Part shown: in pieces, positions 7,246-33,554 of the stretch
Position numbering within the stretch: the stretch's first letter is position 1
How the letters are laid out: the number at the start of each line of letters is the position of its first letter
Source: Anabaena sp. CCY 0017
GTDB taxonomy: Bacteria; Cyanobacteriota; Cyanobacteriia; Cyanobacteriales; Nostocaceae
Direction: 5' to 3'
Assembly: GCF_963920885.1 (NCBI RefSeq)
Contig: NZ_CAWUDG010000023.1
Location: 1 to 64,000, forward strand
DNA: 64,000 nucleotides
The notes under the pieces: model-generated
Database searches by the model: none
The model's input: the letters and a program-made list of their open reading frames with translations, nothing else
What the model was told of the DNA's origin: nothing
Translations under genes and position numbers: made by a program

Positions 7246-7317
7246 AAGGAGTTAGCTCACTGGTAGAGCAATCGACTAGAAATCGATGTGTTACAGGTTC
7301 GATTCCTGTACTTTTTA
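7246..7317 (+). tRNA. tRNA-like gene with canonical cloverleaf but anomalous anticodon loop CUAGAAA (anticodon AGA); possible pseudo-tRNA or orphan tRNA
   Basis: Folded by hand. Acceptor AAGGAGU/ACUUUUU with G3·U70 and G4·U69 wobbles. U8, D-arm GCUC-ACUGGUA-GAGC (A14, G18G19). Anticodon arm AUCGA-CUAGAAA-UCGAU (U33 and A37 present). 5-nt variable loop. T-arm ACAGG-UUCGAUU-CCUGU. Discriminator A73. CCA is not encoded. Confidence 0.45.
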
Positions 7318-7742
7318 CCCACCCTTCCAAGGTGAAAACACAAACCTGAAAAGGTTACTAGAAACTCTGTAATGTAGGCTTACTAGCGCTCATCACTTGT
7401 GGTGTTCGGTAGTAGCAGTGAAGAAGCCAGCGCCAATTTTCTCTCCCTGACTTGAGTCTGTCCCTTCGGTTTCCCTATCCAGAGTTCTGGAACTGGCTAC
7501 CTGAACGGCAGATTTGAGGGTTGTTGTCTGTTTCTAGATTACCCAAGGGTAGTTTAGGAATAAGTACCAGCCTTCTTAATCCAGTTTTGGATGTGACATT
7601 TGCCCGCAACTGAACTGTAAAAACCTACATTTGCAGAGTTTTAAAATTTAATGTAGTATGTGTAGTATTAAGGCAAAAGTTATCTGCTAATTAAGTTATT
7701 GGCACTAATGCCTGATAACGGGAGCATCCCACTTTTTTAGCC

Positions 7743-8019: not shown

Positions 8020-9606
8020 ATGTTTTTATTAAACTTTTTTCGTCGGCTAAAACTGCCTAAATTATCTATGAAAATTTCTTTGTGGAAAACTTTTTATATC
8101 AAGCCTAACGAAATTGGGATTTTGTATCAACGCAGTGATTTTCAGAAAATTTTGCAACCTGGTACTTACAACTATTTTGGTCGGCACTGGAATGTAAAAA
8201 CCTATGACCTCAATCAACCAGAGTCTCAAATTGAGAACTTGGAATTGTTGCTGCGAAATCATAGCGCAGAGTTACAGCCACATCTGTTAGTAGTTAAAAC
8301 GGCATTTAATGAAACTGCTTTAGTTCGCTGTGGTCAAAATTGGGTCAGTGTTGCCCCTAATCAATTAAAGGCTTTTTGGCGTGGTTTTATTGAAGTAGAA
8401 TCCCATGTTTTCAACTTAGATGAAAACTTGGAATTACCTGCTGAATTTGTGCAGCAACTACGGGTAAATACCTTAAATGGCATCAAAAAATTCCAAATTT
8501 TTGAGTACGAAATTGGTTTGCTGTACGTGCAGAATAATTTTGTACGCCCCCTAGTAACCGGAGAGTACGCTTTTTGGGCTGTAAATAGAGATGTTTCAGT
8601 GCGGACTCTCAGCCGGATGATTCCAAATCCAGAGTTTCCCTTAGAAGATATCTTGATTTCACAACATCCCGATTTTGTAGAGGCTTATTGCAAAACTGTC
8701 GAATTACAAAATCAACAAGTTGCGATCGCTCGTTATCAAGGTAAAGTCATTAGTATCCTACCCCCATGCAGTCGCAAGCTGTTTTGGCGAGATGTAGAGG
8801 TCGAAGTAATTGACATCAGCACCGATGCTAAATTGTCCTCTGACTTAGTTGCTGAGTTAGTTGTGGGTCTACCTGAAGCTGTAATTTTGAGCCTCAATAG
8901 TTTACATATTGCCTACATACCCCCCCAGTATGTGGGACTGTTGTACATCAATCAAGAGTTTCAAACACAACTCCAGTCCGGGAATCACGCTTGGTGGGTG
9001 TTTGGGCGTTCTGTAAACACAGAAATTTTTGACCTCCGCCAACAAACAATGGAACTATCCGGCCAAGATATTTTATCCAAAGATAAAGTACCTTTGCGCC
9101 TCAACTTAACTGCTGGCTACCGCATCACCGACCCACTCACAGCCAAAAACCGTTTATCGGATCTCACTAGCTACTTATACAAAGAGCTACAATTTGCTTT
9201 GCGTGGTGCTGTAGGTGAAAAAACTCTAGATGCCTTACTAGAAGATAAAGGGGCAATTGATAGCAGTATTTTTGATTACATTCACCAAAAAACCGCCGAC
9301 TATGGCATAGAAATAGATTCGGTTGGAGTCAAAGATATTATTCTCCCTGGTGAAATTAAAACGATTTTAGGGAAAGTAGTAGAAGCAGAAAAAATAGCCC
9401 AAGCTAACGTTATCCGTCGTCGTGAAGAAACGGCTGCTACTCGCAGTATGTTAAATACTGCCAAAGTAATGGAAGATAACCCCGTAGCATTGCGTTTAAA
9501 GGAGTTAGAAGTATTAGAAAGAATTGCTGAGAAGATTGAGAAAATCCAAGTCAATGGAAGTTTGGATAGTATTTTGACCGACTTAGTGCGGATGAATCGC
9601 GATTAA
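8020..9606 (+). CDS. SPFH/band-7 (stomatin-prohibitin-flotillin) domain protein with triplicated N-terminal segment
   Basis: 528 aa. The C-terminal part (LRLNLTAGYRITDP ... EAEKIAQANVIRRREETAA ... ALRLKELEVLERIAEK) is typical SPFH core plus helical tail. It is preceded by three tandem about-150-aa segments, each beginning with an EIG(I/L)LY...F...L.(P/T)G.Y.(F/W) element that resembles the first beta-strands of SPFH domains. Confidence 0.7.
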   Translation: MFLLNFFRRLKLPKLSMKISLWKTFYIKPNEIGILYQRSDFQKILQPGTYNYFGRHWNVKTYDLNQPESQIENLELLLRNHSAELQPHLLVVKTAFNETALVRCGQNWVSVAPNQLKAFWRGFIEVESHVFNLDENLELPAEFVQQLRVNTLNGIKKFQIFEYEIGLLYVQNNFVRPLVTGEYAFWAVNRDVSVRTLSRMIPNPEFPLEDILISQHPDFVEAYCKTVELQNQQVAIARYQGKVISILPPCSRKLFWRDVEVEVIDISTDAKLSSDLVAELVVGLPEAVILSLNSLHIAYIPPQYVGLLYINQEFQTQLQSGNHAWWVFGRSVNTEIFDLRQQTMELSGQDILSKDKVPLRLNLTAGYRITDPLTAKNRLSDLTSYLYKELQFALRGAVGEKTLDALLEDKGAIDSSIFDYIHQKTADYGIEIDSVGVKDIILPGEIKTILGKVVEAEKIAQANVIRRREETAATRSMLNTAKVMEDNPVALRLKELEVLERIAEKIEKIQVNGSLDSILTDLVRMNRD

Positions 9607-24959: not shown

Positions 24960-26279
24960 GTGATGAAACTCTGTCCAAATGTTGGCTGTCTATATTCGCA
25001 AAATCCCGATACGGATCTAGTTTGTATCAAATGTGGTGAAAAACTCTTGCTTCAAGACCGTTATCACTTGCTGCGGTGTCTTGGAAGTGGTGGCTTTGGC
25101 AAAACTTATTTAGCTGTGGATGAACACCTTCCCTCCAAACTCAGGTGTGTGATCAAACAACTCTGCTTTCAGGTGTCAGACAGGGAAAGCTTTGACAAAG
25201 CTGTAGAATTATTTCGCCAGGAAGCAGTGAGTTTGAATAAATTGCAGCATCCCCAAATACCGAAGTTATTAGGGTACTTTGAACAGAAGCATCAGCTGTA
25301 TTTGGTGCAGGAATTGATTTTAGGACAAACCCTAGAACAGGAACTGCAAGCACAAGGAGTTAAAAACGAATCCCAAATTGGGGAATTACTCCGCAATTTG
25401 TTACCAGTGCTGCAATTCATTCATGACCGAAAAGTGATCCATCGGGATATTAAGCCAGCAAATATCATGCGTCGTCTACCCCAAGGGGATTTGGTGTTAA
25501 TTGACTTCGGGGTGGCGAAACACGTCACGGCTACAGCATTGTCCAAGACAGGGACAAGCATCGGTAGCCCAGAATATATTGCGCCTGAACAAACACGGGG
25601 AAAAGCTTTACCAGCCAGTGATCTTTACAGCTTAGGTGTTACCTGTATTCACTTACTGACGGGAATTCCTCCCTTTGATTTGTTTGATGTGATCAGCGAT
25701 CGCTGGGTATGGCGTGACTATATATTGAGTGAGAATCGGGTCAGCCATGCCTTCGGTCAAGTTCTGGATAAACTGCTGCACAATACCCTTGCTAAACGTT
25801 ATCAATCTGCCGATGAAGTTCTGCAAGCCCTGAATATAGCCACATTACAGCTAGATAATTTCCAGGTAGAACTTGATTACAGCCGATTACGCGATTTACT
25901 GACTTTACGCCAATGGGAACAAGCAGACAAAGAAACTTGGGCGCTGATGTGTGAAGCCATCTCGAAGCCAATTGGTAGCTATATTTTTTGTAATGATTTA
26001 AAAAAGTTACCAGATGAGATATTACAAACAATTGACCAATTATGGTTGAAGTATAGCAACGGGCGTTTTGGCTTTAGCGTCCAGAAGCAAATTTACGAAA
26101 GTGTTAACGGTGACTATGGCAAGTTTGCTGCTGCTATTAGCTGGAATTCTTATTACTCCAACTCTATTCCAGAATTCTTTTTTATTTGGTTTGCTCCCAA
26201 AGGATACTTCCCTTCTAGGATTTGGGCTGGTGGGACTCAAGTTTGGCAACACACTCAGGTTTTAGTGTCCAAGTTATAG
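24960..26279 (+). CDS. Ser/Thr protein kinase with N-terminal zinc-ribbon and C-terminal GUN4-like domain
   Basis: N-terminal CPNVGC...CIKCG. Kinase subdomains GSGGFGKTY, HRDIKPANIM, DFGVAK, GSPEYIAPE. The C-terminal part (WEQADKETWALMCE...LWLKYSNGRFGFSVQKQIY) matches the GUN4-like fold. Confidence 0.8.
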   Translation: MMKLCPNVGCLYSQNPDTDLVCIKCGEKLLLQDRYHLLRCLGSGGFGKTYLAVDEHLPSKLRCVIKQLCFQVSDRESFDKAVELFRQEAVSLNKLQHPQIPKLLGYFEQKHQLYLVQELILGQTLEQELQAQGVKNESQIGELLRNLLPVLQFIHDRKVIHRDIKPANIMRRLPQGDLVLIDFGVAKHVTATALSKTGTSIGSPEYIAPEQTRGKALPASDLYSLGVTCIHLLTGIPPFDLFDVISDRWVWRDYILSENRVSHAFGQVLDKLLHNTLAKRYQSADEVLQALNIATLQLDNFQVELDYSRLRDLLTLRQWEQADKETWALMCEAISKPIGSYIFCNDLKKLPDEILQTIDQLWLKYSNGRFGFSVQKQIYESVNGDYGKFAAAISWNSYYSNSIPEFFFIWFAPKGYFPSRIWAGGTQVWQHTQVLVSKL

Positions 26280-26450: not shown

Positions 26451-27158
26451 ATGACATCTGGGTATTTACTAGTATCTCACGGCAGTCGTGACCCCCGTCC
26501 AGAAGTTGCTATGCAGCAATTAGCAGGGTTGGTATCTGCACAAATGGGTAATTCTCAACATCAGGTAGGTATAGCTGCTTTGGAATTACAACCTCAGCCT
26601 TTACATCAGCAGATCCAAAAATTTGCTACTTCGGTTGACGAGGTTGATTGCTTGCAGGTTGTCCCGCTATTTCTGCTACCGGGTGTCCATGTAATGACGG
26701 ATATTCCTGAGCAGATTACTTTGGCAAAACAGGCTCTTGGTGAAAATATGATGATTAACCTGCATCCCCATCTAGGTAGTCATCCTGGTTTAATTACGTT
26801 ACTATCCGAGCAAATGGCTACAATGAAAGCCGAAACCACAATTTTGTTAGCTCACGGTAGCCGTCGTCCTGGTTCTTTAGAGCCAATAGAAACCATAGCT
26901 GCAAGATTGGGAGCAGTCACCGCTTATTGGGCTGTAGCTCCTAGTTTAGAATCACGTATAAAGGATTTAGTTGCTGCTGGTAAGCGGGAAGTAACAATTT
27001 TGCCGTACTTTTTATTTACAGGTGGTATTACTGATGCGATCGCTCAGTCCATAGAAAAGTTAAAATTACAATTTCCTGCTGTCACTTTCCAACTGGCAGA
27101 ACCTTTGGGAGCAAGTGCAGAATTAGCTAAGATCATTGGGGATTTAATAGATACATGA
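26451..27158 (+). CDS. cbiX: sirohydrochlorin chelatase, CbiX-type (two-domain)
   Basis: Two CbiX halves, each with an HGSR motif (LLVSHGSRDPR; LLAHGSRRPG). It overlaps the cobA start by 4 nt. Confidence 0.7.
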   Translation: MTSGYLLVSHGSRDPRPEVAMQQLAGLVSAQMGNSQHQVGIAALELQPQPLHQQIQKFATSVDEVDCLQVVPLFLLPGVHVMTDIPEQITLAKQALGENMMINLHPHLGSHPGLITLLSEQMATMKAETTILLAHGSRRPGSLEPIETIAARLGAVTAYWAVAPSLESRIKDLVAAGKREVTILPYFLFTGGITDAIAQSIEKLKLQFPAVTFQLAEPLGASAELAKIIGDLIDT

Positions 27159-27934
27159 GCCGCACAGAGAAAGAAGCGCAAAAGTGTTTGGGTAAGGTTT
27201 ATTTGGTAGGTGCGGGGCCAGGAGATCCAGGACTCATGACCCTTAAAGGTAAGGGTTTATTAGAATGTGCAGATGTAGTGATTTATGATGCTTTGGTCAG
27301 TCCAGCGATTTTAGCTATGATTAATCCCCAAGCTGAAAAAATCAATGCTGGTAAGCGTATGGGGAGACATTCATTATTACAGTCAGAAACTACCCATTTG
27401 TTAATTGAAAAGGCGCAAGAAAACGCTGTAGTGGTGCGGCTAAAAGGTGGCGACCCGTTTATTTTTGGTCGTGGTGGCGAGGAAATGGCTGATTTAGTCC
27501 AAGCTGGCGTATCTGTGGAAGTTGTGCCGGGTATTACAGCCGGAATTGCGGCTTCTGCTTATGCTGGCATACCTTTAACTCATCGGCTTTATAGCTCTTC
27601 TGTGACTTTTGTAACTGGACATGAGTCAGCAGGTAAGTATAAACCCCAGGTAAATTGGCAGGCGATCGCTCACGGTTCAGAAACCATTGTCATTTACATG
27701 GGCATTCACAATTTACCTTATATTGTGGAAGAGTTAAATCAAGCTGGGTTAGATTTAGATACACCCATAGCTTTAGTCCGTTGGGGTACAAGACCAGAAC
27801 AAGAAGAGTTGATTGGCACTTTAGCAACCATTATTGGACAAGTCGAGGAAACTGGATTTAGCGCCCCTGCGATCGCAGTCATTGGTTCAGTAGTAAATAT
27901 GCACGGTATTTTATCTGGTTGTCGTCCTGTGTGA
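27155..27934 (+). CDS. cobA: uroporphyrinogen-III C-methyltransferase
   Basis: GKVYLVGAGPGDPGLMTLKG and VVRLKGGDPFIFGRGGEE signatures of SUMT/CysG-C. Confidence 0.85.
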   Translation: MSRTEKEAQKCLGKVYLVGAGPGDPGLMTLKGKGLLECADVVIYDALVSPAILAMINPQAEKINAGKRMGRHSLLQSETTHLLIEKAQENAVVVRLKGGDPFIFGRGGEEMADLVQAGVSVEVVPGITAGIAASAYAGIPLTHRLYSSSVTFVTGHESAGKYKPQVNWQAIAHGSETIVIYMGIHNLPYIVEELNQAGLDLDTPIALVRWGTRPEQEELIGTLATIIGQVEETGFSAPAIAVIGSVVNMHGILSGCRPV

Positions 27935-28011
27935 TAGTTGCCTGTTTTATGCATCAGCTATTGATCAGCAAATTCCAGGTTGTTTAACGGCCATTTTAAT
28001 AAATAATAGCA

Positions 28012-28449
28012 ATGACTTTTGCAGAAATTGAGTATCAAGACAAAGCAGAACTTAGCCGTAATCAAGTAATCAATCTTTATTCACAATGTGGATGGTCATC
28101 AGCAGACAAGCCTGAACAACTTTTGTTAGCTCTTACTAACTCGCACACAGTGATTTCAGCATGGCATCAGAATTTGCTGATTGGTCTTGGTAATGCCATT
28201 TCAGATGGTGCTTTGGTTGTTTATTACTCTCATTTATTAATATTGCCAGCATATCAAAAAAGAGGTATAGGACGGGAGATTATGAAACGTCTACAAAGTC
28301 GTTATATTAATTTCCATCAGCAAATCTTACTGTCAATAGATCATGCTGTTCCCTTCTACGAAAAACTTGGTTTCCAGGATTCACAAGGTGTCACACCAAT
28401 GTGGATATATGATGGGAATGATATTGATATTGCCAAAAAGCATGATTGA
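28012..28449 (+). CDS. GNAT family N-acetyltransferase
   Basis: 145 aa with acetyl-CoA-binding motif QKRGIGREIMKRL. Confidence 0.75.
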   Translation: MTFAEIEYQDKAELSRNQVINLYSQCGWSSADKPEQLLLALTNSHTVISAWHQNLLIGLGNAISDGALVVYYSHLLILPAYQKRGIGREIMKRLQSRYINFHQQILLSIDHAVPFYEKLGFQDSQGVTPMWIYDGNDIDIAKKHD

Positions 28450-28485
28450 TACTCACCGCTAAATATTGCAAGGAGGTATGGGGTG

Positions 28486-28575
28486 GCACAAATTATCATT
28501 GTAGGTGCAGCCCTAGCCCTACTACTGGTGAAACGTGGTATTAATGTCACGCTAATTGAAGTTGTATGCTGTTGC
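28486..28575 (+). pseudogene. 5' fragment of an FAD-dependent monooxygenase gene (decayed paralogue of 32346-33554)
   Basis: ATGGCACAAATTATCATTGTAGGTGCAG... aligns with the first about-100 nt of the intact gene at 32346. It carries a 15-nt deletion that removes GPTGA of the GxGxxG motif, and it reaches an early stop (MAQIIIVGAALALLLVKRGINVTLIEVVCCCHIAL*). Confidence 0.6.
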
Positions 28576-28673
28576 CATATAGCTCTATAAGTAATAGACT
28601 CAGCATTAATTTTATAATTTTTACCTTTGCGAATTTCTGATAAAATATCAGTATCAATTAAAGATTTTCTCAC
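28576..28673 (-). pseudogene. truncated PIN-domain (VapC-like) toxin gene remnant
   Basis: The N-terminal 33 aa (MRKSLIDTDILSEIRKGKNYKINAESITYRAIW) match the first beta-alpha of PIN domains (conserved D-T-D). The rest of the 105-aa ORF is antisense to the monooxygenase fragment and the GNAT gene, so it is not PIN sequence. Confidence 0.45.
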
Positions 28674-28681
28674 GCCTAACT

Positions 28682-28906
28682 TTAGTCTCTATAATTCCTG
28701 TGTTTTAAAATATCTGCGACCATTTCATCAACTAATTCAGCATCATCAGCCCATTTACCGATAAATGAATTATTAAGAATTTCTGGTTGTGTTAATTGCT
28801 CAATCATGGCTTTAATTATGTCAGAAATTTCGCAATTATAGGTTTGTGCCAATTGGTTGATTTTGGCAAAGGTTTCTTGATCGAGTTCTATTTCTAGTTT
28901 TTGCAT
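28682..28906 (-). CDS. putative antitoxin partner of the decayed PIN gene (VapB-like)
   Basis: 74-aa acidic protein that ends 8 nt upstream of the PIN remnant start on the same strand, a typical antitoxin-toxin arrangement. Confidence 0.4.
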   Translation of the reverse strand: MQKLEIELDQETFAKINQLAQTYNCEISDIIKAMIEQLTQPEILNNSFIGKWADDAELVDEMVADILKHRNYRD

Positions 28907-28965
28907 AGGTGATTAAGAAGTTGAAAATTAACAGCTTATATTAATTATAAGTGAATGGACGTTGT

Positions 28966-31716
28966 TTACCGCCGAAACCAAGAGCGAACCCAACGCCAAA
29001 ACCGCCACAACCACGACCAAGAACCACGGCGAAAAACTACAGGCGTTTGTGGTTGAGAAAGACGCTCAATGGCATCGTTGCAATTTTGCAAATTAGTATC
29101 AATTCCCATTGTCTGAAATAGTTCGCGGGCATTGCGATAAGCACCCAGCGCGTCTGATTCTCGGTTGACGTTTTTTAATGTCAAACCTAAATTAAACCAG
29201 GCGTTTGCTTCCCCTCGAATATCGCCTATCTCTCTAGAGATATCCAAAGACTGCTGGTAGAACTCAATCGCCCGTTGGTACTCTTCCAAGCTGTCGTAAG
29301 CATTGCCTAAATTGATCAAGGAATCACTTTCACCATTGCGATCACCTATTTGCCGTTTGATTGCCAAAGACTTTTGGAGGAAATTAATTGCCTGTTCGTA
29401 CTGTTCGAGGGAGTTGTAAGTATTACCCAAATTGCCTAAGCAAATACCTTCACCAGGGCGATCTCCTATCTCTATAGCTATGTCCAAAGACTGCTGATAG
29501 AAATTAATTGCCTGTTGATACTGCCCCAGGGAGTTAAAAGCATTGCCTAAATTGCCCAAGGAAATACCTTCGCCATTGCGATCGCCTATCTCTGTAGCTA
29601 TGTCAAAAGACTGCTGGTGGAAATCAATTGCCTCTTGGTATTTTCCACAGTAACGGTAAGCATTGCCCAAATTGTTTAAAGCATTACTCTCACCTGAGCC
29701 ATCACCTATCTCCCTAGCTATGTCCAAAGACTGCTGATAGAGATAAATTGCCCGTTGATACTGTCCCAGGCAGTTGTAAGCATTGCCTAAATTGTTTAAA
29801 GCATTACCTTCACCTGAGCGATTGCCTATTTGACGTTTGATTTCCAAAGACTGTTGGAAGAAATTAATTGCCAGTTGGTACTGTCCGAGAGAGTTGTAAG
29901 TATTGCCCAAACCCATTAAGTAATTACCTTCACCATAGCGATCGCCTATTTCGCTGGCTATAGCCAAAGACTGCTGATAGAAATCAATTGCCCGTTGGTA
30001 CTGCCTCAGGGAGTTGAAAAAATTACCCAAATTGCCTAAACAAATACCTTCACCATAGCGATCGCCTATTTCTCGTTTGATTTCCAAAGACTTCTGGAAA
30101 AAATTAATAGCCTGTTGGTACTGTCCCAGAGAGTTATGAGTATAGCCTAAATTGACCAAAGCAGTACCTTCACCATAGCGATCGCCTATTTCCCGTTTGA
30201 TTTCCAAAGATTTCTGGAGAAAATTAATAGCCTGTTGGTACTGTCCCAAAGAGTTATGAGCAACGCCCAAACCGTTTAAAGCTTCACTTTCTGCGTTATA
30301 ATCACCTATCTCCAGAGATATTTCCAAAGACTGCTGATTGAACTCAATCATTTTTTGGTAATCTCCCAAAAAGTAGTAAGCATTCCCCAAAAAGATAAGA
30401 GAATCCCGATATTTCCAATTGTCGTGATCGCCAATTTCTTGCCATTTATTGACCAACTGCCCATATAATTCCACTTGGTCGATGTAATAACCCCGCAAGC
30501 TTAAAAAATCATCGCAAACGCGAATGCTATCAAAGGCAGAGTTATAATCTTCCAACTGATAAAAGTGATCAAAAATTTCTAAGTATTCTTTGACATCTTC
30601 TTTTGTTGTCCAGGGTGGTTGTTTAGCAATTGAGCGATAATAATCAATAGCTCGTTGATGCGCCTCTGTTTGATTACCTGCTTTATACCGCACATACTCC
30701 AAAACCACTGGCTGAAACTCAAATCGCCGCTTACCATTGAGTTTTTCTACCAACAAAGAACGCTTAACCAGATTCCTTAACTCTTGCTCAATTTCTGCTT
30801 CTGAACTTTCTGGCAATACTGCCAAGGCTGCTGCGCTACTAATTGCACCACGATACACACTAATATTCAGCAATAACGCTTTTTGCAGTTCACTCAATCT
30901 TGCAAAACTGGCATCCAATACCAACACCATTCCCACATTTTCCCGGCGATGCACACCTACCACTTGGGGGTCTGTCAACAACTGCTGCAAGTTGCCTAAA
31001 CCTAAATCTGCTAGTCTGCTTAAATCTGGGTCTTGAGAATATTCTTCTTTTAATAAATCTGCTACCAATCTCAACAATAAGGGATGCCCATCTACCAGTT
31101 TGACAAACTCAGCTAAATCTCCCCGAATGCCTAATGCAGTTAACAGTGCGACTCCTTCCTCTACTTGCAAACCTTTCAGGGTTAGCCATGCAAAGCCTTT
31201 TGGTAATTCAGGTCTTTCCCTAGTGGTGACTAAGACTTTACTCTTACTGCCAGATTCCACCCAGGCGTTAAAGAAATCACCATAAAATAGACTTCCCCAT
31301 TGTCTATCTGCTTGTAATAAACTCTCTAAATTGTCAATAATCAGTAAAAATTGACCAGTTCGTAAACACCTAATCAACGCCTCGACTAACTGCGTTTCTT
31401 GTTCTGGAACCGGAAAGCCAAATTCTTGTAATACTTTCCTCGCTAAATCGCTAAAACTTGCCCCGTTACCGACATCAGCCCAAAAACGTTTAGGAAAACC
31501 CCCAATTTCATCGTAAATTTTAGCGGACAGAGTAGATTTCCCTGTACCACCAATGCCTTCTATGCCAATGAGAAATGTATTTTCATCAGTTAACCATTGC
31601 TGTATTTGGGCTATTTCTTCTGTTCGTCCTTGCCAATAAGCCAAGCTTTTGGGCGAGTCACCTGCTTTCAAAATCCCTGGTGATTCGGCTTTGGTACTGC
31701 GTTCTATCAACTCCAA
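28966..31716 (-). CDS. STAND NTPase: NB-ARC domain + about 13 tetratricopeptide repeats
   Basis: P-loop GIEGIGGTGKSTL and Walker B LLIIDNLE, then a winged-helix-like region. After that come about 13 x 40-aa TPR units (GEG.ALNNLGNAYNSLGQYQQAI.F.QQSL.I..EIGDR). Two adjacent 120-nt repeat units (30040-30159 and 30160-30279) are nearly identical at the DNA level. Confidence 0.85.
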   Translation of the reverse strand: MELIERSTKAESPGILKAGDSPKSLAYWQGRTEEIAQIQQWLTDENTFLIGIEGIGGTGKSTLSAKIYDEIGGFPKRFWADVGNGASFSDLARKVLQEFGFPVPEQETQLVEALIRCLRTGQFLLIIDNLESLLQADRQWGSLFYGDFFNAWVESGSKSKVLVTTRERPELPKGFAWLTLKGLQVEEGVALLTALGIRGDLAEFVKLVDGHPLLLRLVADLLKEEYSQDPDLSRLADLGLGNLQQLLTDPQVVGVHRRENVGMVLVLDASFARLSELQKALLLNISVYRGAISSAAALAVLPESSEAEIEQELRNLVKRSLLVEKLNGKRRFEFQPVVLEYVRYKAGNQTEAHQRAIDYYRSIAKQPPWTTKEDVKEYLEIFDHFYQLEDYNSAFDSIRVCDDFLSLRGYYIDQVELYGQLVNKWQEIGDHDNWKYRDSLIFLGNAYYFLGDYQKMIEFNQQSLEISLEIGDYNAESEALNGLGVAHNSLGQYQQAINFLQKSLEIKREIGDRYGEGTALVNLGYTHNSLGQYQQAINFFQKSLEIKREIGDRYGEGICLGNLGNFFNSLRQYQRAIDFYQQSLAIASEIGDRYGEGNYLMGLGNTYNSLGQYQLAINFFQQSLEIKRQIGNRSGEGNALNNLGNAYNCLGQYQRAIYLYQQSLDIAREIGDGSGESNALNNLGNAYRYCGKYQEAIDFHQQSFDIATEIGDRNGEGISLGNLGNAFNSLGQYQQAINFYQQSLDIAIEIGDRPGEGICLGNLGNTYNSLEQYEQAINFLQKSLAIKRQIGDRNGESDSLINLGNAYDSLEEYQRAIEFYQQSLDISREIGDIRGEANAWFNLGLTLKNVNRESDALGAYRNARELFQTMGIDTNLQNCNDAIERLSQPQTPVVFRRGSWSWLWRFWRWVRSWFRR

Positions 31717-31757
31717 TATTTCTTGCTGTGCAGTACCATAAACAGCAATATAGTTAG

Positions 31758-32192
31758 TTACTTTGGGCTGTTAGTATTCCTACTCAAGTCATAGGTTGGC
31801 TGATTAACATTGCCTGCTGTATTGATCTGTATACTTTCATCGTAAGATTCAGCATTGAGACTCACAGAGGCATCACTTGATTTTTGTTCTTGCAAAATTT
31901 GAGCTATTTCCTCTGCCAGTGCGGTATCAGCATCCAAAATCTTCTTCAATTGCACCCGCAAACTTGCTTGTAAATCTTGATTCTCTGGATTTTCAGCTAC
32001 ATCTGTCGCCGCTTCTTGGGCTGCTTCTTTAGCCTCTACTTTAGGTTGTAACTTACCCCAAATAGCCTTGGCTTTATTCCAACCATCTTCACCAACTTTC
32101 TGAGATGCTCCTTCTATGGCTTTATTACCTGCATTCAGCAAAAATGGCAGATAGGGAGCCACAAGTTTGACGATTGAGCTGATGATATCCAT
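31758..32192 (-). CDS. hypothetical protein co-oriented immediately upstream of the NB-ARC/TPR gene
   Basis: 144 aa with an N-terminal amphipathic/hydrophobic helix (IISSIVKLVAPYLPFLL), then K/E/A-rich helical sequence. 41 nt separate it from the NB-ARC start. Confidence 0.4.
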   Translation of the reverse strand: MDIISSIVKLVAPYLPFLLNAGNKAIEGASQKVGEDGWNKAKAIWGKLQPKVEAKEAAQEAATDVAENPENQDLQASLRVQLKKILDADTALAEEIAQILQEQKSSDASVSLNAESYDESIQINTAGNVNQPTYDLSRNTNSPK

Positions 32193-32345
32193 TTATTTAC
32201 GCAATTTATCGCAATTAGTTATACAAATGTATACTAGCGCATCATAATTCTGAATTACGCCAATAGGGTAATACAGCAATTACTCATCAGGAATCCAAGT
32301 TTCAGAAAAATTTCTTAAAGTCCCCTTTTTTAAGGAAGGCATAAA

Positions 32346-33554
32346 ATGGCACAAATTATTATTGTAGGCGCAGGTCCCACAGGTGCAGCACTGGCTTTAC
32401 TCCTAGTAAAACATGGCATTAACGTAACCCTCATTGAAGCTGCAAAAGACTTTCATCGGGTATTTCGCGGTGAGGGATTAATGCCTAGTGGGTTAGATGC
32501 GCTCACACAAATGGGACTATCTACACTTTTAGAAGAAATTCCCACTCGCCCACTCGATGGCTGGGAGTTCATCATTGAGGGAAAACAATTATTTCGCATA
32601 GACGAGCCAATGGGGTCAACTCGTCCCTGTACACTGGTGTCACAACCGCCACTGCTCAAAGCCTTAATTTCCGAAGCTCAAACCCATGATGGATTTGAAT
32701 TTATCCAGGGTGTTGCGGTCAAAGATTTATTTTGGAGTAATCAGCGTGTTGCAGGTGTGATACTCAGTGATGGGCGACAACTTACGGCTGATTTAGTCAT
32801 TGGGGCGGATGGTCGGAATTCAATCGTGCGGGAACGTGCTGGATTAAAGTTAGTACGTCAACCTAAAAATATAGATATTCTCTGGTTTAAGTTGGCAGCT
32901 AGTCCCCAGTTTGCAGATGATAATGTATTTCGGACAATTGTAAATAGTAATCGCATCTTTAGCATCTTTCATGGTGCAGAGTCAGGTAAATTACATTTAG
33001 CTTATGTAATCTCCGCCAACGAAAAAACCGACTACAAACAAGCAAATTGGGCAGAAATTTTCGCCTCACTATCCCCCTCATGGCTAGCAGAACATTTTCG
33101 CAATCATGCAGATACCATCGAATCTCCCATTAAGCTGTCTGTTGTGGTGGGTTATTGTCCTCAATGGCACGCACCCGGTATATTACTTTTAGGTGATGCT
33201 GCACACCCCATGTCTCCTGTCCGCGCTCAGGGTATAAATATAGCCTTGCGTGATGTAATTGTTGCAGCTAATTATTTAGTACCGATATTGCAAGCAGACG
33301 CGGAACACCAAAAAATTGATACTGCACTATCACAGATTCAAGCCGAACGTCAGCCAGAAATTATCCGCGCCCAGCAACTACAGTTACACGAAGCTGCACA
33401 AGGCGAACTGCTGCGAAAAAATTCCTTAGTGCGATCGCTCTTGGTTCAATTTGCGCCCTTACTGCGTACAATAATTAAACTGTCTTGGTTAAGGCGACAA
33501 CGTGAAATGCGCGAGGGCATAACACAGGTTAAATTATGTCAATATGAACCATAA
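32346..33554 (+). CDS. FAD-dependent monooxygenase (UbiH/COQ6-like)
   Basis: N-terminal IIIVGAGPTGAALALLL dinucleotide-binding motif and a DG..S motif (ADGRNSIVR). The C-terminal LLGDAAHPMSP is the FAD-binding 'GD' motif. Confidence 0.8.
   Translation: MAQIIIVGAGPTGAALALLLVKHGINVTLIEAAKDFHRVFRGEGLMPSGLDALTQMGLSTLLEEIPTRPLDGWEFIIEGKQLFRIDEPMGSTRPCTLVSQPPLLKALISEAQTHDGFEFIQGVAVKDLFWSNQRVAGVILSDGRQLTADLVIGADGRNSIVRERAGLKLVRQPKNIDILWFKLAASPQFADDNVFRTIVNSNRIFSIFHGAESGKLHLAYVISANEKTDYKQANWAEIFASLSPSWLAEHFRNHADTIESPIKLSVVVGYCPQWHAPGILLLGDAAHPMSPVRAQGINIALRDVIVAANYLVPILQADAEHQKIDTALSQIQAERQPEIIRAQQLQLHEAAQGELLRKNSLVRSLLVQFAPLLRTIIKLSWLRRQREMREGITQVKLCQYEP

Follow-up and report, generated by a model that had tools for sequence, protein, structure and literature searches.

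A mobile Bell/NLR cassette in Anabaena sp. CCY 0017 with a candidate -1 frameshift site between effector and receptor genes

The 64,000-nucleotide stretch of Anabaena sp. CCY 0017 DNA analyzed here (positions 1 to 64,000 of contig NZ_CAWUDG010000023.1, hereafter the window) carries a block of about 3.8 kb between a GNAT acetyltransferase gene (28012-28449, plus strand) and an intact flavin adenine dinucleotide (FAD)-monooxygenase (MO) gene (32346-33554, plus strand, followed by a methyltransferase gene). At the center of the block are two minus-strand genes, one for a small protein that we assign to the Bell-domain effectors (31758-32192, 144 residues, WP_414552045.1), and one for an NB-ARC/TPR NOD-like receptor (NLR; 28966-31716, 916 residues, WP_414552044.1) with an annotated TTG start at 31716. 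The effector gene is upstream, the gap between the two is 41 nt, and co-transcription is plausible. Further downstream on the same strand follow a gene for a vapB-like antitoxin of 74 residues (28682-28906) and a truncated vapC (PIN toxin) pseudogene (28562-28673, GTG start at 28673). The latter is contained in a 105-residue open reading frame (ORF; 28356-28673, minus strand) that overlaps a plus-strand MO remnant, consisting of the leader and the first ~26 codons (28450-28561). At its right end, the block closes with the divergent intergenic region between effector and intact MO genes (32193-32345). A first-pass annotation made from the sequence alone had listed an NB-ARC/TPR protein, an antitoxin-like ORF, the start of a PIN gene, an MO fragment and a 144-residue ORF, and all of these are where it had put them.

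The receptor has a Pfam NB-ARC domain at residues 32-222 (E 1.6e-13), with the P-loop GIGGTGKS at residues 54-61, and a TPR region (TPR_12, 2.5e-95). The latter includes a tandem array (29221-30336, minus strand) of 120-nt units encoding 40 residues each, for which Tandem Repeats Finder reports 8.8 copies (roughly nine) at ~75% identity, and which is presumed to be the ligand-sensing part. NLR length differs among near-identical cassettes (916 residues in the window, 652 in Nodularia UHCC 0506 [L002], 807 in Anabaena 7120, 1049 in Nostoc UHCC 0926), suggesting that repeats are gained and lost by unequal recombination, like those of fungal NLRs. The proposal that this nucleoside triphosphatase (NTPase) is Avs/bNACHT-like found no backing: the PADLOC matches were limited to generic TPR models (PDLC01169 and others), with none to Avs or bNACHT and no defense-system assignment, the nucleotide-binding oligomerization domain (NOD) is of the Pfam NB-ARC type, and the closest known arrangement is the Bell/BASS-NLR pair. 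The carboxyterminal end of the NLR (28966-29060) is a Trp/Arg-rich amphipathic tail, RRGSWSWLWRFWRWVRSWFRR, which is conserved in relatives from Cylindrospermum and Tolypothrix; the NLR of Anabaena 7120 has the hydrophobic, transmembrane-like tail FILCFIFGLIAFPFALVWLILLFLW in its place. The sensor itself may be membrane-associated.

The first-pass annotation had also raised the possibility that the effector of the NTPase is encoded separately, and here it was right, since the 144-residue protein belongs to a Bell family that is paired with NLRs. The protein has no Pfam or PADLOC match. Its 185 close relatives, all from Nostocales and ~135-150 residues long, likewise have no Pfam domain, and the wider family comprises 1,750 representatives at 50% identity. 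The amino terminus, MDIISSIVKLVAPYLPFLL, forms a hydrophobic helix 1 with Asp at position 2. In an AlphaFold 2 (AF2) model, residues 3-101 form a bundle of helices and the tail behind them is disordered; among relatives, the first ~100 residues are well conserved, and the last 35-45 vary by type. In every genome that was opened, an NB-ARC/TPR gene follows the effector gene directly and in the same direction. The effector is homologous (E=1.8e-45) to AFZ24262.1 of Cylindrospermum stagnale (P0065), which together with the NLR AFZ24263.1 has been described as a Bell/NLR pair with a shared bass_09/bass_10 motif (Dyrka et al. 2020, Table S2, bioRxiv 10.1101/2020.01.06.895854). The motif residues in that table are exactly those that we had aligned independently. 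By homology, then, the 144-residue protein is a Bell-domain cell-death effector. Bell-like domains also occur together with CHAT (caspase-like) domains in fusion proteins of ~340 residues from Scytonema, Nostoc and metagenomes, some arranged as CHAT-Bell-tail and others as Bell-tail-CHAT (L097 461-1513; L104 180-1304; P0150-P0173).

Effector tails fall into types. The tail motif in the window (residues 110-136, 31785-31865, minus strand) reads VSLNAESYDESIQINTAGNVNQPTYDL and defines what we call variant A (...SLNAESYDESIQINTAGNVNQPTYDLSRNTNSPK), which is homologous to the BASS10 type, if diverged from it. Variant B, classed as bass_09/bass_10, has an aligned tail of the form NIQxSANAYDQSxVKQVGKIEAxEVxF. 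Of the 120 best protein clusters, 62 belong to variant A; they come from Nodularia, Anabaena, Nostoc, Calothrix, Tolypothrix, Aphanizomenon/Dolichospermum and Sphaerospermopsis, and the motif is conserved in all of them. We regard the variant-A tail as a putative amyloid-signaling motif; it (as SIQINTAG) is absent from the table of matched pairs of Dyrka et al. (2020).

When effector tails and NLR amino termini are aligned locally (BLOSUM62), the 14 loci other than variant A that retain the amino terminus of the downstream NLR score 36-77. Matched pairs include NIQxSANAYDQSxVKQVGKIEAxEV with IKMEGTAxDESKLTQVGxVDAENF, FNINAQGSNIGLIGDG with YNIDAQNSNIGVIGDH, and the IQQxVxGNxNQVIGQ types. The nine variant-A loci that were scored reach only 20-34 (27 in the window), and these alignments are spurious. 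The NLR in the window thus has no copy of the motif at its amino terminus, although a matched motif is what marks a Bell/BASS-NLR pair. Its annotated amino terminus, MELIERSTKAESPGILKAGDSPKSLAYWQGR, corresponds to the segment that comes after the motif in variant-B NLRs (...HVDAENFHLTAEQVQILVQLESSTKAESPGVLKAGNP...). These comparisons point to a functional core that is a regulated-cell-death Bell/NLR pair of the amyloid-signaling type, in which the NLR appears to have lost its own amino-terminal motif; only a fusion of the two proteins by frameshifting, as proposed below, would give the receptor a motif.

The end of the effector gene contains a candidate -1 frameshift site (31758-31767, minus strand). 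The gene ends in ...AGC CCA AAG TAA, with the stop codon TAA (31760-31758) directly after the heptamer C_CCA_AAG (31767-31761), a sequence cited as very prone to shifting in E. coli (Atkins et al. 2016, PMC5009743). From the heptamer, the -1 frame reads CCC AAA GTA ACT AAC TAT ATT GCT GTT TAT GGT ACT GCA CAG CAA GAA ATA TTG GAG..., or in translation PK-VTNYIAVYGTAQQEI-LELIERSTK..., which is the NLR. The NLR reading frame is open from 31770 through the NLR stop, for 934 codons. The 'intergenic' stretch 31717-31760 (minus strand), which in the NLR frame reads VTNYIAVYGTAQQEI, would be the linker of a putative transframe fusion, and its homolog in variant-B NLRs is the linker that is translated after the motif. 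Putative fusion peptides from upstream of the annotated NLR start are VTNYIAVYGTAQQ..., VTNYIAVYGTAQQEILELIER (window) and VTNYIAVYGTAQQK (Anabaena 7120), and the junction peptide expected after Glu-C digestion of the fusion is ...NTNSPKVTNYIAVYGTAQQE.

We read this junction in 15 variant-A loci with 13 distinct sequences, five of the 15 on metagenomic contigs. They include three loci of the Nodularia type (the window among them), Anabaena PCC 7120 (BAB74123.1 and the downstream NLR), A. cylindrica, Sphaerospermopsis, Calothrix NIES-2100, Tolypothrix NIES-4075, Nostoc UHCC 0926 and Nostoc 7524. In all 15, the heptamer is in frame with the effector and a TAA or TAG follows, directly adjacent in 14. 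The only substitution in the heptamer is A_AAA_AAG in the Sphaerospermopsis type, where the effector ends in NEKK rather than NSPK, so that the amino acids have changed and the slipperiness has been kept. Apart from this type, the last three effector codons of variant A do not vary even at synonymous positions, whereas selection on amino acids alone would be expected to give xxC CCA AAG in ~2.4% of lineages (in this genome, AAG is used for 26% of Lys and CCA for 32% of Pro). At the protein level, PK or KK is the carboxyterminal end of 62 of 62 variant-A clusters (PKSS in one of them) and of none of 53 variant-B clusters.

In variant A, the NLR frame is already open 13-31 nt before the effector stop, and the -1 frame remains open for 167-1065 codons, the short values being due to contig ends or to one decayed NLR. 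In the 13 aligned junctions, the -1 frame has zero stops (the other two frames have 0-5), and all indels between heptamer and NLR are multiples of three. We also surveyed 1,422 ORFs of at least 100 residues from the window and 80 related loci for an in-frame X_XXY_YYZ within the last 15 codons combined with a -1 frame open for at least 150 codons; only three genes, all of them effector genes, have both. Transcriptional slippage as a source of the shift is ruled out by an A-run of only three bases in most loci. A search of the literature for links between frameshifting and NLR or Bell systems found none, and a -1 frameshift site at the end of a Bell gene appears not to have been described.

Related proteins show the architecture that such a shift would produce. 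P0204 combines a Bell domain, the motif IQIVQNVTGNRNHVIGQVAGG, NACHT and TPRs in a single frame, P0267 and P0315 consist of Bell, NB-ARC and TPRs, and in P0146 a Bell-like domain is fused in frame to the NLR clade found here. In-frame fusions of a variant-A effector with its own NLR were not found at high coverage, the related Bell-like P0146 being the only approximation.

A possible stimulatory RNA element lies downstream of the heptamer. An H-type pseudoknot (31692-31748, minus strand) can be drawn with stem S1 formed by TTGCTGT (31748-31742) and ACAGCAA (31729-31723), and stem S2 by TGGTACTGC (31738-31730) and GCAGTACCA (31700-31692). Over 13 loci, 91% of the cells are paired, compared with 18-60% when the partners are slid against each other, and one pair covaries (GC in six loci, AU in five, GU in two). 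The pseudoknot is a suggestive candidate only. The simple local hairpin TTGCTGT/ACAGCAA by itself is unconserved in four loci; a longer stem is better conserved and shows little covariation.

Together, these data suggest a model in which a mobile Bell/NLR cassette has been inserted at this locus and a -1 frameshift yields both free effector and a Bell-motif-NLR fusion. We put the probability of this reading at roughly 0.6. That the shift is programmed, occurs at the last two codons of the Bell gene and makes free effector abundant and fusion rare, with one copy of the motif as both nucleator and substrate, has in our judgment somewhat better than even odds. Most ribosomes would stop at the TAA of the effector gene and release the 144-residue Bell protein with its carboxyterminal motif. 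A minority would slip by -1 on C_CCA_AAG, helped by the adjacent stop and possibly by the downstream pseudoknot, and would go on to make a fusion of ~1075 residues that consists of Bell domain, motif, linker, NB-ARC and TPRs. The effector domain that seems to be missing from the amino terminus of the NLR would thus probably be supplied by ribosomal frameshifting, and because of the fusion, a single motif copy would serve both partners. By analogy with NLR and other STAND proteins, binding of a trigger to the fast-evolving TPR array would cause the NB-ARC domains to oligomerize and the fusion motifs to cluster. The clustered motifs would then nucleate an amyloid fold and template the identical motif on the pool of free effector. 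As proposed for HET-S/NWD2 and Bab/Agp, helix 1 of the Bell domains would be released into the membrane and the cell would be killed.

Several points weigh against this reading. The transframe protein itself is predicted from reading frames and their conservation, and amyloid formation by the variant-A tail is likewise a prediction. Fold searches linked the AF2 model neither to Bab, HeLo or MLKL nor to any other solved pore-forming domain. Since the topology of Bell-type folds is highly variable (Ibarlosa et al. 2024, bioRxiv 10.1101/2024.11.07.622273), we treat the fold evidence as uninformative rather than negative. The pseudoknot begins 9-12 nt past the heptamer (12 nt in the window), compared with the usual 5-9 nt, it forms poorly in Sphaerospermopsis and Calothrix, and its covariation is confined to the single pair. 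A Shine-Dalgarno-like AGGAG is found 8-11 nt upstream of the heptamer in some loci only. The slipperiness of A_AAG depends on the tRNA-Lys repertoire, and tRNA scans of the window and 60 loci left tRNA-Lys(CUU) undecided. An adjacent stop codon may stimulate a shift through slow termination, by analogy with other shift sites beside stops.

The nature of the stretch between heptamer and TTG is a further point. It is most conserved at third codon positions (entropy 0.51/0.43/0.36 for the three positions), which indicates constraint at the nucleotide level and not a pattern of the coding type; the notion of a coding-like substitution pattern for 31717-31760 was dropped, because the codon-position entropy test gave no coding-type signal, which leaves the open frame, the indels in multiples of three, the lack of start codons and homology to a translated linker as the arguments for translation. 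A stimulatory RNA could be the source of such constraint. Independent initiation of the NLR is possible as well, since TTG 31716 is available in the window and an ATG in A. cylindrica, and near-cognate ATT or ATA codons could serve as starts in loci without canonical ones.

Accepting the pairing of effector and receptor, one may doubt that phages are the trigger. Bell/NLR pairs are concentrated in multicellular bacteria (Dyrka et al. 2020), no phage genes are present at the flanks of the islet, and PADLOC is silent on the pair, all of which would fit a role in developmental or stress-induced cell death or in kin discrimination within filaments. We consider such a role possible at best. The related Bab/Agp pair has been shown experimentally to be an abortive-infection system (Ibarlosa et al. 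2024), and the cassette is mobile, patchy in its distribution and accompanied by toxin-antitoxin (TA) pairs, like defense islets. As this alternative concerns the trigger and not the mechanism, it is compatible with the frameshift model.

It is unlikely, in our view, that effector and NLR are simply two ordinary, separately translated proteins. In this case, the NLR would start at TTG 31716 or at near-cognate codons, perhaps by translational coupling, and would need no shared motif to activate the Bell effector, whose tail it might bind directly; the conserved ...CCA AAG TAA would reflect a required carboxyterminal Pro-Lys together with an RNA coupling element. The Prokaryotic Genome Annotation Pipeline indeed annotates exactly the 916-residue product, nine of the 15 loci have a TTG or ATG 16-26 codons into the frame, and the non-coding-like conservation between heptamer and TTG fits an RNA element. 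In the remaining six loci (L088, L089, L090, L091, L113, L114), however, the first ATG, GTG or TTG comes 37-48 codons into the NLR frame, inside or past the conserved segment ESPGxLKAGxxxKSLAYWQGR, so that strongly conserved residues have no canonical start ahead of them. Pro-Lys as a requirement of the protein does not account for the synonymous invariance of the last three codons, nor for an only substitution that changes the residues and keeps the site slippery, and separate translation leaves the stop-free -1 frame and its in-frame indels unexplained. As for direct binding, there is weak similarity between the tail (NAES..IQINTAGN) and a conserved NLR segment, KAESPGILKAGD; yet variant-B NLRs with a motif of their own have the KAESPG segment just as well, so that it is not a variant-specific partner. 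The absence of starts also touches on annotation: NCBI marks many NLRs of this clade as 'partial', even in complete chromosomes (P0137 of Calothrix NIES-2100, P0121 of Nostoc cycadae), probably because there is no valid start codon before the conserved amino-terminal region.

Finally, it is very improbable that the pair is a decaying module, with sensor and effector uncoupled by deletion of the NLR motif and the heptamer an accident shared by descent, because, against the truncated vapC of the window, the truncated NLR of Tolypothrix NIES-4075 (L116 5414-6331, -1 frame open for only 305 codons) and the splitting of the P0146 fusion into ORFs of 226 and 523 residues beside IS605-type transposase fragments (L119 4001-6243), variant A is spread over many genera in those 62 of 120 best clusters, with intact effector ORFs, conserved tails and, in loci with enough sequence, NLR frames open for 670-1065 codons.

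The frameshift model can be compared with several known systems. With the Bell/BASS-NLR pair AFZ24262.1/AFZ24263.1, the pair in the window shares a helical effector domain of ~100 residues, in which helix 1 is hydrophobic and position 2 acidic, an NB-ARC/TPR partner that is collinear and from the same NLR clade, and tail homology to the BASS10 type; it differs in that the NLR has no amino-terminal motif and that the two ORFs are joined by a conserved -1 slippery heptamer. The logic proposed for HET-S/NWD2 of Podospora anserina and Bab/Agp of E. coli is the same, with a sensor amyloid that converts the carboxyterminal motif on a small helical pore-forming effector. Each of those systems has its motif in two separate copies, while recoding would let both partners use a single copy here; moreover, neither system matches the window pair in sequence or detectable fold, and Agp is not an NLR. 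In single-frame proteins that have Bell domain and NLR all in one (P0204, P0267, P0315), the architecture is that predicted for the transframe product, but with only one reading frame, the same gene gives no free effector.

On the side of recoding, the -1 programmed frameshifts of phage lambda gpG/gpGT and of E. coli dnaX and copA also have an X_XXA_AAG near the end of a short ORF, and a major short and a minor extended product in a fixed ratio, as is predicted here. The copA heptamer is reportedly C_CCA_AAG, the same as in the window. Unlike in these cases, the stop is directly adjacent in the window, the downstream structure is further off and weakly supported, and the extension is a whole receptor of 930 residues. 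Avs/AVAST and bNACHT systems, in turn, share with our pair a STAND NTPase, a carboxyterminal repeat sensor and a presumed abortive-infection outcome, and some of them have a Bell-like amino-terminal helix motif (Ibarlosa et al. 2024). They differ from it in that its NOD is of the NB-ARC type, its effector is on a separate ORF, and no PADLOC model for Avs or bNACHT matches it.

What HET-S/NWD2 is to fungi, Bell/NLR amyloid-signaling pairs are to bacteria, and there is a looser parallel with RHIM-based necroptosis signaling. How sensor and executioner are matched and dosed is an open question for such pairs, and the frameshift model, if true, would be a new solution to it. No co-evolution of two motif copies would be needed, identity of the motif would be guaranteed, the stoichiometry of sensor and effector would be fixed, and the pair would be insulated from the many paralogous Bell/NLR pairs in the genome. 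Such recoding-based immune wiring would be a new role for programmed frameshifting in cellular genes, as opposed to those of viruses and insertion sequences. The device would be present in more than 60 Nostocales protein clusters, including that of the model strain Anabaena PCC 7120, and would account for many cyanobacterial NLR genes that are annotated as 'partial' or seem to have no effector domain.

The history of the block can be reconstructed from 80 syntenic loci, which were fetched with the MO protein and onto which the window proteins were mapped. Empty sites, with GNAT followed directly by MO, are found in Nodularia LCM1.Bin15 (L001), Nodularia SMAG_U11082 (L004), LEGE 11386 (L015) and Trichormus (L032). 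The GNAT-MO spacing there is 33-36 nt, as is the spacing between GNAT and MO remnant in the window. Nodularia UHCC 0506 has cobA, an intact PIN gene (139 residues), an RHH gene (74 residues), an NLR gene (652 residues), the gene for a 143-residue protein and MO, without GNAT, and N. chucula (L005) has a partial block of NLR gene, 143-residue protein gene and MO that extends up to the contig end. As related Nodularia have either the empty site or the intact block, the block in the window is, on the strength of synteny, an insertion. The first-pass annotation, which had assumed that about 3.9 kb was inserted or rearranged, is borne out in this respect.

The MO remnant comes from the recipient locus. 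On the plus strand after the GNAT stop, the sequence is AGGAGG-N5-GTG GCA CAA ATT ATC ATT GTA GGT GCA / GCC CTA GCC ... ATT GAA, so that the leader (28450-28482) has kept its Shine-Dalgarno sequence AGGAGG and the GTG start is at 28483. The ~80 nt from there to ~28561 read VAQIIIVGA[-GPTGA]ALALLLVKRGINVTLIE and align to 32346-32440. The same alignment confirms that, as had been noted before, the PIN reading frame runs antisense into an MO fragment: the 105-residue frame is antisense to the remnant from ~28561 leftwards. Leader and remnant together are 83% identical to the 5' ends of GNAT-linked MO genes (L001/L004) and 67% identical to the intact MO of the window. A diverged paralog of the intact gene, as suggested in the first-pass annotation, is ruled out by these values, which identify the fragment as what is left of the resident, GNAT-linked allele. 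Conversely, in the 150 nt ahead of the intact MO gene, identity is 93-94% to L002/L005 and only 42-64% to the empty-site genomes, and the intact MO of the window starts with ATG, compared with GTG in the empty-site type.

A 15-nt deletion in the remnant, at 28509-28510, has taken out GPTGA of the GxGxxG motif for FAD binding. It is flanked by two 8-nt near-repeats (AGGYGCAG; AGGCGCAG and AGGTGCAG in the intact copy), a setting that fits replication slippage after the fragment had lost its function.

The junction between PIN and MO is at 28561/28562, where the alignment to the PIN gene of L002 breaks at ...CATACAA|CTTCAATTAG. A Nodularia-like donor would have been the source of the cassette, and in the simplest history, a donor segment of PIN, RHH, NLR and 144-residue protein genes, leader and MO would have replaced the resident MO from about codon 30 on. 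The left end would be an illegitimate joint between codon 37 of the donor vapC and codon ~30 of the resident MO, and the right end a homologous crossover in or beyond MO. Because the identities of MO to empty-site and block-bearing genomes are mosaic, this crossover could not be placed inside the gene. With sister genomes that preserve both empty and donor-type sites, the locus is a clean natural example of a defense-type cassette gained by one homologous and one illegitimate crossover.

The same event has damaged the TA pair. PIN homology in the 105-residue ORF is confined to the first 37 codons, which match the start of the intact PIN gene of L002 at 97% identity; the stump itself has no Pfam PIN match. 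The earlier identification of a vapC start was correct, while its estimate of about 33 codons was low, since 37 of 139 codons survive. The 74-residue protein has a weak RHH signature (Pfam RHH_1, E=0.005, below the Pfam cut-off) and is 86-89% identical to the product of the gene that precedes the intact 139-residue PIN gene in L002 and in Nostoc PCC 7524 (L118). What had been called a decayed vapBC pair is therefore decayed only in vapC; the antitoxin gene is intact. In VapBC type II systems, a PIN toxin gene comes after the gene for an RHH-type antitoxin, as in the cassettes of L002 and Nostoc 7524, where the pair is intact. Here, the toxin has been cut to 37 codons, and therefore the pair is non-functional as a TA system and the vapB-like antitoxin is now an orphan. 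Both are collateral damage of the insertion and stand outside the mechanism.

In Nostoc PCC 7524, the same cassette of Bell, NLR, 74-residue RHH and 139-residue PIN genes is present at an unrelated locus; the islet is a mobile four-gene cassette of Bell effector, NLR, vapB and vapC. Most relatives have a TA pair 3' of the NLR (for example L113, L115, L116, L117; L081 8938-9715), of a type that depends on the strain: besides RHH/PIN, it is of the PIN_3 type in Anabaena 7120 and DUF433/DUF5615 in four others. A TA module thus seems to travel regularly with the cassette, while its type can be exchanged.

To the left of GNAT are cbiX (26451-27158) and cobA (27155-27934), both on the plus strand. 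The interval from cobA to MO is a site of recurrent gene gain and loss. In L001, a gene for a 205-residue methyltransferase (8875-9492) is located between cobA and GNAT, and L004 has ~5 kb of extra DNA there; the window has no such gene, and cobA and GNAT are only 77 nt apart (27935-28011). An Rfam scan of 27900-32500 found zero known RNA families, and a promoter and terminator scan gave counts no higher than in shuffled controls. Elsewhere in the window, ARAGORN calls a tRNA-Ser with anticodon AGA (7246-7319). UCN codons are normally read in bacteria by GGA, UGA or CGA anticodons, so that AGA is unusual, and the call may be a miscall or an odd tRNA. Ser/Thr protein kinase genes (24960-26279) are a few kb from the Bell-NLR pair in the window, and kinase genes are directly upstream of the pair in Cylindrospermum (L083 1-5162) and Tolypothrix (L085 3896-5707); this neighborhood could be a coincidence or a recurrent association.

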